From Escherichia coli (lineage in GTDB: Bacteria > Pseudomonadota > Gammaproteobacteria > Enterobacterales > Enterobacteriaceae): DNA of 64,000 bases. The translations under genes and the position numbers were made by a program. The stretch is from NCBI RefSeq assembly GCF_002854065.1, contig NZ_CP024147.1; one strand, written 5' to 3'. The notes below the pieces were generated by a model. That model worked only from the letters and a program-made list of their open reading frames with translations. It searched no databases and was not told the DNA's origin. Shown here piece by piece: positions 40,360 to 57,427 of the stretch; the stretch's first letter is position 1, and the number at the start of each line of letters is the position of its first letter.

Positions 40360-40444
40360 GCCGAAGTGGCGAAATCGGTAGACGCAGTTGATTCAAAATC
40401 AACCGTAGAAATACGTGCCGGTTCGAGTCCGGCCTTCGGCACCA
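40360..40444 (+). tRNA. leuX: tRNA-Leu (anticodon CAA)
   Basis: GCCGAAGTGGCGAAATCGGTAGACGCAGTTGATTCAAAATCAACCGTAGAAATACGTGCCGGTTCGAGTCCGGCCTTCGGCACCA: cloverleaf with long variable arm, anticodon loop tTCAAaa, 3' CCA. Confidence 0.95.
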
Positions 40445-40457
40445 TCGGAACATTAAT

Positions 40458-40481
40458 AGACGTCAACGGACGTCTTTTTTT
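40458..40481 (+). terminator. Intrinsic terminator after leuX
   Basis: AGACGTCAACGGACGTCT hairpin followed by T7. Confidence 0.8.
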
Positions 40482-40642
40482 GTGCCTGAAATCCAGTATC
40501 CGCAAGGCTTTCCTCGCTTTTTCACTCAACCTAAGTCAACCTGATTCAATTTACATCAACTTACTGATGCGGGTACAACTGCGGGTATATCGCGGTTCGA
40601 TAATGTTTGTACCCACACAGAACCCTTGAAAGGATACTCATC

Positions 40643-41899
40643 ATGGCTCTGAGTGATGTGAAGGTTCGTTCGGCTAAGCCTGAAGCAAAAGCCTATAAAC
40701 TTACTGATGGTGACGGTTTGGTTTTGCTGGTTCACCCGAATGGCTCAAAATACTGGCGGCTGCGTTATCGTTTTGGCGGTAAGGAGAAGATGCTGGCGCT
40801 TGGGAAATACCCTGAAGTGTCGCTGGCGGATGCCCGGGCACGCCGGGATGAAGCTCGTAAGCTGTTAGCTAATGGCGTCGATCCCAGTGAGAACAAGAAA
40901 GCCGTTAAGGTAGAGCAGGAGCAAGAGGCGATAACGTTTGAATTGGTTGCCAGAGACTGGCACGCCAGCAATCAGAAGTGGTCTGCATCGCATAGAGCTC
41001 GAGTATTGAAAAGCCTCGAAGATAATCTCTTTGCTGCTATCGGTAAGCGGAACATTGCAGAACTGAAAACGCGAGACCTACTTGTACCCATCAAAGCGGT
41101 GGAATCATCCGGGCGACTCGAAGTCGCCGCCCGTTTACAGCAGCGAACTACTGCGATTATGCGCTTTGCCGTTCAGAGCGGCTTAATCGACTATAACCCC
41201 GCACAAGAGATTGCCGGTGCGGTAGCTACGGCGAAAAGACAACATCGTGCTGCTCTGGAACTTAATCGCATTCCTGAATTACTTCACCGCATTGATCACT
41301 ATTCTGGCAGGCCGTTAACTCGACTGGCGGTTGAACTCACTTTGTTGGTTTTCATCCGTTCAAGCGAGCTGCGTTTTGCTCGCTGGTCAGAAGTGGATTT
41401 TGATACTGCCATGTGGACGATTCCAGGGGAGCGTGAACCGCTGGAAGGCGTTAAACATTCTCAGCGTGGTTCAAAGATGCGGACTCCCCATCTTGTTCCT
41501 TTGTCGCGGCAGGCTCTGGCTATTTTGGAAAAGATCAAAAGCATGAATGGGAGCCGTGACCTGATCTTCGTAGGAGATCACGATCCGCGTAAGCCAATGA
41601 GTGAGAATACGCTTAATAAGGCCTTGCGAGTAATGGGCTATGACACGAAAACGGAAGTGTGTGGGCATGGTTTCAGGACGATGGCGTGTAGCTCATTGAT
41701 TGAATCGGGTTTGTGGTCGAGAGATGCGGTGGAAAGGCAGATGAGCCATCAAGAGCGTAGCTCTGTGCGTGCGGCGTATATTCATAAGGCGGAACATTTG
41801 GGAGAACGCAGGTTGATGCTGCAGTGGTGGGCTGATTTTCTTGATGCAAATCGTGAGAAGGCGATGAGTCCATTTGATTTTGCCAAACTTAGGCGGTGA
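40643..41899 (+). CDS. intB: P4-type (IntB-like) tyrosine integrase at the leuX island border
   Basis: About 418-aa ORF with N-terminal DUF4102-like region (KAYKLTDGDGLVLLVHPNGSKYWRLRYRFGGKEK) and C-terminal HGFR/Tyr recombinase motifs; immediately 3' of a tRNA gene. Confidence 0.88.
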   Translation: MALSDVKVRSAKPEAKAYKLTDGDGLVLLVHPNGSKYWRLRYRFGGKEKMLALGKYPEVSLADARARRDEARKLLANGVDPSENKKAVKVEQEQEAITFELVARDWHASNQKWSASHRARVLKSLEDNLFAAIGKRNIAELKTRDLLVPIKAVESSGRLEVAARLQQRTTAIMRFAVQSGLIDYNPAQEIAGAVATAKRQHRAALELNRIPELLHRIDHYSGRPLTRLAVELTLLVFIRSSELRFARWSEVDFDTAMWTIPGEREPLEGVKHSQRGSKMRTPHLVPLSRQALAILEKIKSMNGSRDLIFVGDHDPRKPMSENTLNKALRVMGYDTKTEVCGHGFRTMACSSLIESGLWSRDAVERQMSHQERSSVRAAYIHKAEHLGERRLMLQWWADFLDANREKAMSPFDFAKLRR

Positions 41900-42229
41900 T
41901 TAATTGCGGTTTCTCCCACATTATGCGGAGGGGGACGATGTATTGGTTAAAGCGGTCCATCCGAAGGAGACCAGTAGTGCCAGCAGTAATGCTGTTACTG
42001 CTGGTTAATGACATGCTTTTTTTTGTCTATTTTTCAATCTGCGTTATGTCTCTCGGAGGTAACTCTGTGTTAAATATTGATAGGGCTAGTTTGCACAATG
42101 AAGAACCGAACAAAGTATTGATTTAACATTAGTATTTACTTAGCTGTTCTGACCGGTTTCTGCGATACAATGCTACCAAGTATGTAACTAATTCTAAGCA
42201 AAGGTGCTTTATAATCGAGAGGCGATTGA

Positions 42230-54500: not shown

Positions 54501-54511
54501 GGGCAAATCCA

Positions 54512-54516
54512 CGTCC
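54512..54516. repeat. IS2 target-site duplication, right copy (CGTCC)
   Basis: Identical 5 bp directly flanking both IS2 ends. Confidence 0.85.
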
Positions 54517-56987
54517 TTTCGACATAGTCGCCGTTGAAGAGTCGAACATGTGGAGTCCGTGATTCTCTGAGATTTTTACGAAGGCATACTCGATCTGATA
54601 ATCTCTATACTTGTCGATTACCGCACGGACTGCCTGAATCTCTTCCTTATTGAACTTTTTGACTTGTACATGGAAAATTAAGCGAATCGTATCGCCTTTC
54701 TGCCAGTTCATTCGCCTTTGTATTTTTTCTATATTCTCGGCCAGAACAGAGGTTAGAGCGTCGCAGTAAGCTTCCGGTACAACGGCTTTGGACGTACTCG
54801 AGACAATGTAACTACCGTCTCCCGAAAATACGGTGGTGATTCCCATAATGCGCTGATTATGGGCACCACGCTCTTGGACTATATTTGCACTGCCAATACC
54901 GATCACGAGTTCATGGGATAGTGTTGGCGATGATTTGAGTAGCCACGGGACTCCACCCATCTTCGCATAGCAGGCCAGTGACATGTTATTAAGCGAGTAG
55001 CCGAGTGAATAATCAGACTGCGTTAGCAGCTCTATTGTGAAATCCTGTACAGGAACTTGGTGCAAGTAAAATAGGCTTTTACCAAGATAGTAAGGATTAT
55101 CAGCAACTTTGAGTTTTTTAAATGACTGCCGCACCTGTACGAGGGCCAGATCCCAACGTCCTCCTTCATCAGCTTTTTTGCGTATTGCAGCTTCGATGGC
55201 ATTTTTGTATGCATCGACGCTGTCTGTGGATGTTTCGAACACTTCAACACGACTGGTTCCAAGTGCAAATTTACCCTCAAGGCCATTTCTGAAATATTTG
55301 CTATTAGCAATGCCTTTCAGAAGCTTACGGACGAACTGCTCGACTCGCCCTTTGTCATGTTGGGCGCAGATCACGCAGATTGATGGATCGTTCCTATCGA
55401 AGGTACGCTTTGTATAGGGGCCATTTTGTGTAAGACCCTTCTCAGTCCAATCTGCTTCACCGTTATCGTTGAAGACGAACACCGGCTTTTGCATCTGTGC
55501 ACAATCTTTTTGAATATCGGATGGATCCTCAATTTCGATACGCGTTCCATCGAGCAGCGAGATGTTTGTCGCTTGGATATACTTCTTAAGGGCGTCGATG
55601 CGGTCTTTTTTATTCTCGCCTCCGTTGAAAATGGAAACGGACTGCCGAATATGTTCGACAATGGAGTCTTTCTTCGTACCATGCGTATGAAGGATGTAGT
55701 CGTCAAAATTAGCTCGACTAGCTTCGAGATAAACGTCTTTAGCCTCAGCATGAACTGCTTGGCCGTCGGGACGAATGACACTCAGAGTTCTCCCTTCGTG
55801 GCAGCTTTCTACAAACCCTAAAAGTTTTCTAAATCCGTCGTCCTGCTCGGTGACGACGTAGCGACCAATAACATTGAATCCGGTTTTTAGGAAAAACAGG
55901 CAGTTCTCTTTTACTACACGACGTGTTGAGCAATCAATTATAAGACACGGCTGACCTTGGACAGTACGAGTGTCGATTGAATACTTGGCACAAATTTTTA
56001 AGGGATAAGCCTCACCAAGAATTGAGGCTAAAAGATTGTCTTTTGGTTTGGCACTTACCACCTCGATAGGATTGAAGCCGCAAGGAGTTCGACCCAATCC
56101 AGCGAAGTGCTTGAGCAGACCATCTTTAACCAGAGAGCAAAAGGTTCCCAAATTATCCTTTAGTTGCAGTGTCTGCGGTGTACCAGGTTTGGGGAACGTA
56201 CCATCACTCGAAAAAATCTGAATATTGTCACCCTGACGCCGGAAGACGTGCGTCACTTTATGGGAGGAGCGGAGGCTATCTAGAGTCGTCTTGTCGTAGG
56301 GGATCTGGACAAATTTCAACTCCAATTCAGGGATTTTCAGTGGAAACGCATTCAGGACAATCGGCAAGACCCACCCCTTTTGTGTTAGTGAAAAATCCAA
56401 CATACTGCGTCTCGATAATTATTCCCAGTCAGGGATGTGCTGGCACCTGACTGGCGCTCGCTGTGGGTTCCCTCCATCCGACTCTGGAAATAACTGTTTC
56501 AACAATTAATTTTCCTACACTGTAGCGTAAATTTTCTTAAGGCTCCCAAAGCGATTATTTAACTCTTTAAACTAATCTAATGTAAAGACTAGGGAAATGA
56601 TACGAGTGTAGTCTATGTCTTCGCTGTGATGAGGATCTATTCTTCGGTGTACATAGGGGTACTTAAGTTCCGATATAACACTCAACCAGCCTAAATTACA
56701 TCTGCAGGATCTCATGATTAAAATGATCTATGTGGTAGGTCATTAAATGGAGTAACCGGTCTCTCATAGGCAGGCGTAAGCCACCCCTGAGGGGCAGACA
56801 GATGCCATGCAGTTGAATGGTTTAAAGGGTTTGAGAGGGTGATAGTGCTGCGGTTGTCACACTATAGAGTTCTGGCGTAAAAACAGTCAGGCATCTCGGC
56901 ATTTATCAACTCGTCCAACGCTCCTCTGAAATTTGCGGGATCGGTTTAGTTTCAGGTGGGGGCGCTGAGGCCCCCGATTTATCGTAC

Positions 56988-57381
56988 TCAGGATTGTGCG
57001 GTGTAATAGACCAAAGCCAGCTTGTTGCCATCGGGGTCTCTAACATAAGCGCTGTAGAAACCTTCGCCGTAATGCGGGCGCAGGCCAGGTGCTCCCTCGT
57101 CCGTGCCTCCTTGGTTTAAAGCGAGCGCGTGAAGCTGCTGGATATGTTCGGCAGTGCGGGCAATCAGGGCGACCATCACACCATTTCCGGTTGTGGCATC
57201 CTGTTTATCAAAAGGTATGCCGATACCCAGTGCCGTCGTGTTATTACCGTTGAAAACGCCCAGCTACGCGACGTCCTCATTCCTGCCACAATGGGTATAG
57301 CTCTGCATCTCCATGAACGGATAGTCGAATGTGAGGGCATGTGGCTGGTAGTTTGTTTTAAGCATAATGTAAGAAAACATG
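56988..57381 (-). pseudogene. Glyoxalase/VOC-family gene remnant (frameshift plus in-frame TAG), paralogue of the intact gene at 60022-60414
   Basis: Minus-strand translation begins MFSYIML then hits TAA; shifting one frame gives KTNYQPHALTFDYPFMEMQSYTHCGRNEDVA then TAG, then reads on to ...EHIQQLHALALNQGGTDEGAPG...; collinear with the intact paralogue (MFSYVMLGTNDLPRAIRFYDPLMELLGYPKAGRNEEGASW...). Confidence 0.7.
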
Positions 57382-57427
57382 GGCTCTCCTTAATGGATTC
57401 AGGGGGAGTGACTATAATCAGCTCAAA

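Follow-up and report, generated by a model that had tools for sequence, protein, structure and literature searches.

A probable P4-integrase-type defense island in the leuX tRNA gene of Escherichia coli, with an Argonaute system split by IS2

We analyzed a 64,000-nucleotide stretch of Escherichia coli DNA (contig NZ_CP024147.1 of RefSeq assembly GCF_002854065.1), hereafter the window, focusing on the region that begins at the tRNA gene leuX and continues to the window's right-hand end. This region very probably represents the left two-thirds of an integrative island of the P4-integrase type, inserted in the 3′ end of leuX, and is thereby an instance of E. coli defense hotspot #37. Of the E. 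coli sites that harbor genes for defense against phages and plasmids, leuX is the best known. An initial annotation made from the sequence had proposed a defense island at this tRNA gene, opening with an intact P4-type integrase and followed by a type I restriction-modification (R-M) operon, an ATPase-HNH gene pair, and an Argonaute-nuclease pair carrying IS2. All of these were recovered where it had placed them (Table 1), and its description of leuX as an integration hotspot agrees with the literature, in which this gene is defense hotspot #37 (Hochhauser et al. 2023, PMC10121019; EcoSal Plus 2025 review, PMC12707154). According to these studies, hotspot #37 is the most occupied of 41, is anchored by an arm-type integrase, and includes type I R-M systems among its cargo.

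Results

Integration at the 3′ end of leuX

In the window, as in E. coli K-12 records, leuX follows ahr, and its 3′ end is adjoined by a tyrosine recombinase with an arm-binding domain, whose gene starts 198 bp past the tRNA. The integrase shares 58% identity with P4 Int over 98% of its length, and its open reading frame (ORF) was also called by RefSeq in a near-identical genome. Reading the translation by eye, we located the catalytic R, K, H-x-x-R, H, and Y motifs. The annotated attP core of phage P4 has exactly the sequence of the last 20 nucleotides of leuX, and a tandem pair of 12-nt repeats begins 124 nt 3′ of this core, compared with 113 nt in P4. The repeat motif occurs once in the window, against zero expected occurrences, and presumably provides the arm-type sites to which the integrase binds. 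The integrase would recombine a 17-20-nt core that is shared by the leuX 3′ end and the P4 attP. An Rfam scan detected only the tRNA within the island.

As the initial annotation had noted, the opposite boundary is not visible: the leuX 3′ end has no further copy elsewhere in the window, even when up to three mismatches are allowed, and the attachment (att) core is not repeated between 40445 and 64000. Its suggestion that the boundary may lie farther along is borne out in E. coli strain VTB96935v (NZ_CP178662.1), in which the entire region is present without IS2. There, the 3′ end of leuX is repeated at a distance of 38,477 bp from the gene (locus L002, 36428-36473, minus strand), and 17 nt of the window (40422-40438) recur at this attR. 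The attR reads TTCGAGTCCGGCCTTCG, followed by three extra CACCTTCG units and then CACCA; the three extra copies of this 8-nt unit thus lie in tandem inside the attR core. An arm pair, TGTGGGTACAAG TGTGGGTATAAC, is located 54 nt 5′ of the attR core, compared with 53 nt before the core in P4, and here, too, the motif occurs once in the sequence of VTB96935v against zero expected. Taken together, the arm spacing and the cores at both ends of the VTB96935v island allowed us to reconstruct a P4-like attP.

Past the VTB96935v attR, roughly 200 bp are 80% similar to the spacer between leuX and the integrase gene. This segment is the stump, from the left end, of an older leuX island whose integrase is gone.

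The comparison with VTB96935v also locates the left boundary. In ungapped alignment, the segment from ahr to just before leuX contains 34 mismatches in 1,215 bp (2.8%), versus 8 mismatches in 22,226 bp (0.036%) after leuX, and the step between the two levels of divergence falls between 40331 and 40454. From 40445 to 64000 the two sequences are uniformly 99.96% identical, while farther upstream their identity is 94.8-98.6%. The break in divergence therefore lies at the tRNA, matching the expectation for site-specific integration.

These observations bear on two other explanations. The first is that the island is a decayed and immobile remnant, which spread through homologous recombination in the flanking core or through generalized transduction, and not through its integrase. 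Most occupied hotspot #37 loci indeed contain no recognizable mobile element (PMC10121019), the island has no annotated genes for conjugation or packaging, and insertion sequences (ISs) have eroded it, both by the IS2 insertion in the Argonaute gene of the window and in strain S43, where the whole stretch between hsdR codon 3 and a point past attR is gone. We nevertheless judge such a remnant unlikely, since divergence breaks at leuX itself and not inside a core gene, the integrase is intact, attR and the arm repeats of both ends persist in VTB96935v with a spacing like that of P4, and the matching backbone of other genomes includes a small Phage_AlpA-domain gene.

The second explanation is an integrated P4-like phage satellite carrying defense genes in a variable hotspot. 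The similarity of the integrase to P4 Int, the P4 core in leuX, and the P4-like arm geometry are all compatible with it, and such satellites were reported at hotspot #37 (PMC10121019). However, P4 measures 11.6 kb, less than a third of the 38.5-kb element, and the genes alpha primase, sid, delta, psu, and cII/beta were neither annotated nor detected by Pfam in the window, the VTB96935v island, or related loci. We therefore rejected this explanation as highly improbable.

Strain-variable presence and signs of foreign origin

To place the region among its relatives, we compared it with 5,426 complete E. coli genomes. For the R-M module, the ATPase-HNH module, and the nuclease-Argonaute module alike, the sole match in this set was the genome of strain VTB96935v. 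A related integrase, mostly 80-95% identical, was found in 744 of the genomes, and the leuX loci that we examined, in strains KOr024, K-12, and S43, carry other cargo or none; for example, the KOr024 cargo consists of McrBC, a kinase, and HerA. These counts and the differing cargo show that the same gene content is not present at leuX in all E. coli, in line with the initial annotation, which had regarded the modules as absent from the conserved core. The hsdS, ATPase, and HNH genes have a G+C content of 38.6-38.9%, versus 51.6-51.9% in the flanking core. The region thus combines strain-variable presence with signs of foreign origin, supporting the conclusion that the defense modules are accessory and horizontally acquired, not core genes.

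Two side observations concern related and neighboring loci. Strain S43 has the same integrase (99.9%) and the same spacer, with an IS3-family end joined after the first hsdR codons (codon 3). Everything from the hsdR start to 366 bp past attR is deleted, and IS30 and transposase fragments are found instead (locus L003, 21785-24300). The S43 locus derives from the same island by an IS-mediated deletion. In addition, a 5.1-kb block between yjgR and ahr (34054-39145) is present in the window and missing from both VTB96935v and S43. Its ORFs match idnT, idnO, idnD, and idnK in size and order, and the block is a presence/absence polymorphism adjoining the hotspot.

Probable extent and mosaic structure of the island

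Because the near-identical island of VTB96935v is bounded by attL and attR 38.5 kb apart, we infer that the island studied here spans approximately 39.8 kb and ends near the equivalent of position 80.3 kb, about 16 kb past the window. The initial annotation had delimited the island at 40360-57400. Its start, at leuX, holds, whereas its end does not, as the island runs to the end of the window and beyond. Position 57400 is, instead, roughly the edge of a 16-kb defense cassette. DNA homology to Klebsiella pneumoniae loci extends from the integrase region to 57095 at 93-98% identity, homology to Serratia fonticola extends to 56435 at 84-93% identity, and the gene order from the integrase through Argonaute is the same in both. 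This cassette, comprising the integrase, the R-M genes with a Septu-like pair, and the Argonaute-nuclease system BPAN, moves as a unit among E. coli, Klebsiella, and Serratia.

To the right of the cassette, the only widespread segment is 57305-59740, containing the zinc-ribbon gene, yjhP, topAI, and yjhQ, which is found at ~91% identity in ~1,775 genomes, including the K-12 lineage. The remainder of the window encodes a TopAI/YjhQ-type toxin-antitoxin pair and small-molecule or efflux genes, set on a widespread CP4-like backbone. When the nine proteins encoded at 57.4-63.7 kb were searched with PADLOC, no defense family was matched except for a methyltransferase-domain match of the yjhP-like protein to mad2 (3e-18), which appears to reflect only a shared S-adenosylmethionine-dependent methyltransferase domain.

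Two further observations relate to gene calls in this segment. The mechanical ORF of the yjhP-like gene (57807-58871, 354 aa) extends into topAI, and RefSeq calls only its 248-aa C-terminal part. The VOC pseudogene beside the Argonaute gene has an intact paralogue 3 kb farther on, the VOC gene at 60022-60414, to which it is 67% identical.

Beyond the equivalent of the window's end, the VTB96935v island (L001, 38295-46339; L002, 36634-43455) contains a short helix-turn-helix (HTH) gene, YagK/YfjJ, and a Gabija system (GajA, 776 bits; GajB, 853 bits). It also encodes a CP4-type module composed of a GTPase, a WYL-domain HTH regulator, DUF932, an antirestriction protein, RadC, and CbeA/CbtA. An Mrr-like endonuclease matching the PADLOC candidate PDC-S02 completes the right third. 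In related loci, the counterpart of the short HTH gene carries a Phage_AlpA domain. Across a large collection, the Gabija/CP4-type backbone was found in 1,355 index blocks, compared with 335 for the cassette.

This distribution raises the question of whether at least two independent elements, the 16-kb defense cassette and an older KpLE2/CP4-like element, were combined here into a tandem or mosaic array instead of arriving as one island in a single step. In Klebsiella and Serratia, only the part from the integrase to Argonaute is shared, the yjhP-topAI-yjhQ block is found at ~91% identity in ~1,775 genomes, the right-hand backbone is far more common than the cassette, and the older stump past the VTB96935v attR demonstrates that tandem accretion does take place at leuX. 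On the other hand, no att core copy exists inside 40445-64000, and the uniform identity of this segment to VTB96935v indicates that it last moved as one piece. We consider such an array quite conceivable, while leaning slightly away from it, and it is compatible with, not opposed to, an integrative island at leuX.

Two points weigh against the interpretation of the region as a single P4-integrase-type island. Its right end lies outside the window, and both its size and its attR come from one other genome. Its structure is mosaic, as seen in the two positions at which homology to other genera stops and in the yjhP-topAI block, which is only ~91% similar to K-12; more than one element may therefore have accreted to form the island.

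The type I R-M operon

The HsdR, HsdM, and HsdS proteins are all present and intact, with full-length PADLOC matches. The closest solved relative of HsdM is the HsdM of EcoKI (PDB 2ar0), to which it aligns end to end with 681 bits, and its translation contains the motifs NPPF and DPAAGTAGF. Judging by this high protein similarity, the R-M system is probably EcoKI-like. Megablast comparison with other E. coli hsd loci yielded no match beyond VTB96935v, and hence the DNA has diverged from that of EcoKI. Such a system would methylate its own recognition sites and cut unmodified incoming DNA.

Relative to the Klebsiella and Serratia copies of the cassette, the target-recognition domains of hsdS have been replaced: DNA homology to other genera is lost over 47312-48510, except for a central conserved stretch. 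Stop and start codons overlap by one nucleotide at three successive junctions, namely hsdM/hsdS (TGATG), hsdS/ATPase (TGATG), and ATPase/HNH (TAATG).

A predicted Septu-like pair behind hsdS

Directly downstream of the gene for a PtuA-like ATPase, the operon encodes a PtuB-type HNH nuclease. Among solved structures in the PDB, the nine that match the ATPase best in sequence are all PtuA or retron effector ATPases. The HNH protein matched no Pfam or NCBIfam family; it has about 125 homologue clusters, mostly in Gammaproteobacteria, and an invariant CxxC...DH...N...CxxCN pattern is common to 24 of them. Its top structural matches are PtuB proteins. The pair is best described as a divergent, predicted Septu-like PtuAB module. 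Two facts count against this assignment. The ATPase scores below the NCBIfam cut-offs, with 170 bits versus a cut-off of 300 for TIGR04435 (“restriction system-associated AAA family ATPase”) and 44 versus 500 for PtuA, and its HNH partner has no Pfam family. The designation “Septu-like” consequently relies on the PADLOC hidden Markov models and the predicted fold. The two proteins, whose genes are translationally coupled to hsdS, would most likely act as a Septu-type nuclease effector.

Two other systems suggested by PADLOC were rejected. MADS scores fell far short of the NCBIfam cut-offs (MAD2, 92 vs 720; MAD3, 20.7 vs 420; MAD5, 21 vs 400), and the PADLOC matches to mad2, mad3, and mad5 reflect shared R-M and ATPase domains. 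PARIS was suggested by an AriA match (1.3e-20); however, the partner gene encodes an HNH protein, and the PtuA matches are far stronger.

The ATPase-HNH pair belongs to the R-M operon and does not stand alone. We sampled seven genomic contexts of HNH-protein relatives. In six of the seven (loci L004, L005, L007, L008, L014, and L015; down to 31% identity), from Vibrio, Acinetobacter, Alteromonas, Serratia, Klebsiella, and a metagenome, the PtuAB-like pair lies directly behind the hsdS of the same family of 1171-1177-aa HsdR proteins; the exception is Methylomonas, which has an hsdR fragment only. The 1-nt overlap between the ATPase and HNH genes is always kept, and some of the operons contain an additional Fic or DUF3800 gene. 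In the literature searched, we found no description of a link between Septu and type I R-M, and the name of TIGR04435 implies that its curators had noticed an association with restriction systems. The sampled gene neighborhoods suggest that, throughout the Gammaproteobacteria, the PtuAB-like pair consistently accompanies this type I R-M family, which is the only mildly new point of our analysis. It offers a testable lead on how defense systems are layered.

The conserved architecture behind hsdS invites the idea that hsdR, hsdM, hsdS, and the PtuA-like and PtuB-like genes might function as one integrated five-gene system. We consider this idea doubtful. If true, the Septu-like pair would be restrained by the R-M complex, or would monitor it, and would fire when R-M is blocked. 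Such a block could come, for example, from an anti-restriction protein of a phage, and the coupling would resemble that between PrrC and EcoprrI.

The Argonaute-nuclease pair and its disruption by IS2

The Argonaute-nuclease pair is the published and structurally solved EcBPAN system. Its effector nuclease, bAgaN, is 97% identical to EcbAgaN and retains D298, E309, and K311, which were the residues mutated in the study of EcbAgaN (PMC10620215). The intact Argonaute of VTB96935v differs from the solved EcAgo (PDB 23wq) at 3 of 731 residues. EcAgo binds 5′-phosphorylated small RNAs and recognizes complementary DNA (Song et al. 2023, PMC10620215), and the activated EcbAgaN degrades DNA, so that cells harboring a plasmid with a CloDF13 origin are killed (PMC10620215). 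This activity was shown experimentally for a pair of proteins with 97-99.6% identity (PMC10620215). When intact, such a system would use its catalytically inactive long-B Argonaute, loaded with small RNAs, to sense plasmid DNA and switch on bAgaN, upon which the cell would die.

In the window, the Argonaute gene is cut by IS2 at codon 630/631 of 743 and is accordingly not intact. The inserted element has two overlapping transposase ORFs, whose products exceed the NCBIfam cut-offs (TnpA, 276 vs 229; TnpB, 728 vs 597), as well as inverted repeats and a 5-bp target duplication, CGTCC, at 53176-53180 and 54512-54516. A length of 1331 bp and a 5-bp duplication are canonical for IS2. The insertion is absent from VTB96935v, which is otherwise identical, and from loci L010-L013. 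In all four other inspected loci that encode the exact bAgaN protein, the Argonaute is an intact protein of 743 aa, indicating that the IS2 allele is a derived knock-out. An exact-sequence look-up of the IS2-truncated Argonaute product for other carriers returned nothing on record. Since IS2 splits the Argonaute and truncates the sensor, the BPAN system of this strain is almost certainly non-functional, leaving bAgaN orphaned.

Tolerance of a triggering plasmid was previously reported for the ApsAB system in ST38 (PMC11096173). As a speculation for the strain studied here, a knock-out of BPAN by IS2 would fit a host that had to tolerate such a plasmid.

Observations in the core part of the window

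The lowest G+C content in the window is found outside the island, at 19900-21100 (30.7% over 20-21 kb). This segment corresponds to a gene upstream of argF that is annotated in VTB96935v as a frameshifted DNA-binding protein. Rfam matches in the core part comprise a magnesium riboswitch (11482-11597), three naRNA4 elements derived from repetitive extragenic palindromic sequences (within 1354-1431 and 28146-28317), and a strong match to the Yersinia small RNA Ysr276 (181 bits, 29151-29345), antisense to the pepA region.

Table 1. Features of the leuX region. Positions refer to the 64,000-nt window.
Feature	Coordinates	Strand	Evidence and remarks
leuX, tRNA-Leu(CAA)	40360-40444	+	ARAGORN and Rfam tRNA; sole tRNA gene in the window
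attL core GAGTCCGGCCTTCGGCACCA, last 20 nt of leuX	40425-40444	+	Identical to the annotated phage P4 attP core
Tandem 12-nt repeats TGCGGGTACAAC / TGCGGGTATATC, candidate arm-type integrase sites	40568-40591	+	Shortly upstream of the integrase gene
P4-type tyrosine integrase, 418 aa, uninterrupted	40643-41899	+	Pfam Arm-DNA-bind_3, Phage_int_M, Phage_integrase
hsdR, 1174 aa	42230-45754	+	NCBIfam NF008521 equivalog, 1615.7 bits vs cut-off 729; PADLOC REase_I E = 2e-269
hsdM	45834-47402	+	PADLOC MTase_I, 740.8 bits
hsdS	47402-48778	+	PADLOC Specificity_I, 503.5 bits, full length
ABC-type ATPase, PtuA-like	48778-50481	+	PADLOC PtuA E = 5e-44; Pfam AAA_21, AAA_15
PtuB-like HNH nuclease, 388 aa	50481-51647	+	
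bAgaN, PD-(D/E)XK effector nuclease, intact	51676-52848	-	PADLOC Aga_Helical-REase; PDB 23wq
Long-B Argonaute 3′ fragment, ~codons 631-743	52836-53180	-	Collinear with the intact 743-aa VTB96935v gene; matches the EcAgo C-terminus
IS2, complete, 1331 bp	53181-54511	+	Terminal inverted repeats; junctions read directly
Long-B Argonaute 5′ fragment, codons 1-630	54512-56403	-	PADLOC pAgo_II, 971 bits
Further island cargo to the window end	56404-64000	-	99.98% identical to VTB96935v, inside its attL-attR
VOC pseudogene	56988-57380	-	RefSeq annotates an internal stop in the identical sequence
Zn-ribbon gene	57428-57679	-	
yjhP-like methyltransferase	57807-58553	-	
topAI (YjhX toxin)	58804-59061	-	
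yjhQ-like GNAT	59401-59877	-	
VOC	60022-60414	-	
MdtM-like major facilitator superfamily (MFS) transporter	60424-61695	-	
DUF1349	61734-62309	-	
GNAT	62347-63165	-	
VOC	63226-63660	-	

Relation to known systems

Overall, the region is a clean and fully explained example of the leuX defense hotspot, and it leaves current understanding unchanged. Like other occupants of hotspot #37, it is anchored at leuX, has an arm-type integrase at its left end, and carries interchangeable defense cargo that includes a type I R-M system. The combination of an EcoKI-like R-M system with a PtuAB-like pair and BPAN, however, was not found described in the two hotspot studies (PMC10121019, PMC12707154), and here one of the systems is disabled by IS2.

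The K-12 element KpLE2 (leuX-intB-IS2...yjhP-yjhQ-topAI) resembles the island in occupying the same tRNA gene with a related integrase, in its ~91% identical yjhP-topAI-yjhQ block, and in containing an IS2. In contrast, K-12 matched the query only over ahr, leuX, the integrase gene, and IS2, which together account for 18% of the query at 87% combined identity, and none of the three defense modules is therefore found in K-12. In addition, the IS2 of K-12 adjoins the integrase and does not lie in an Argonaute gene.

Among the individual systems, the Argonaute-nuclease pair has the same gene order and the same 13-nt overlap as EcBPAN of E. coli CAP29 (PMC10620215), from which it differs in the interruption of the Argonaute by IS2. 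The ATPase-HNH pair resembles Septu (PtuA/PtuB) and the PtuAB effectors of type I-A retrons (Ec78/Eco7, Ec83), as each consists of two overlapping genes, the first for an ABC-type ATPase and the second for an HNH nuclease. A further likeness may be drawn to PrrC-EcoprrI, in which an anticodon nuclease is embedded in a type Ic R-M locus. By analogy, both could be viewed as ATPase-containing nuclease effectors genetically embedded in a type I R-M operon; they belong to different protein families, and PrrC is a single protein, whereas the effector described here would consist of a two-gene pair.

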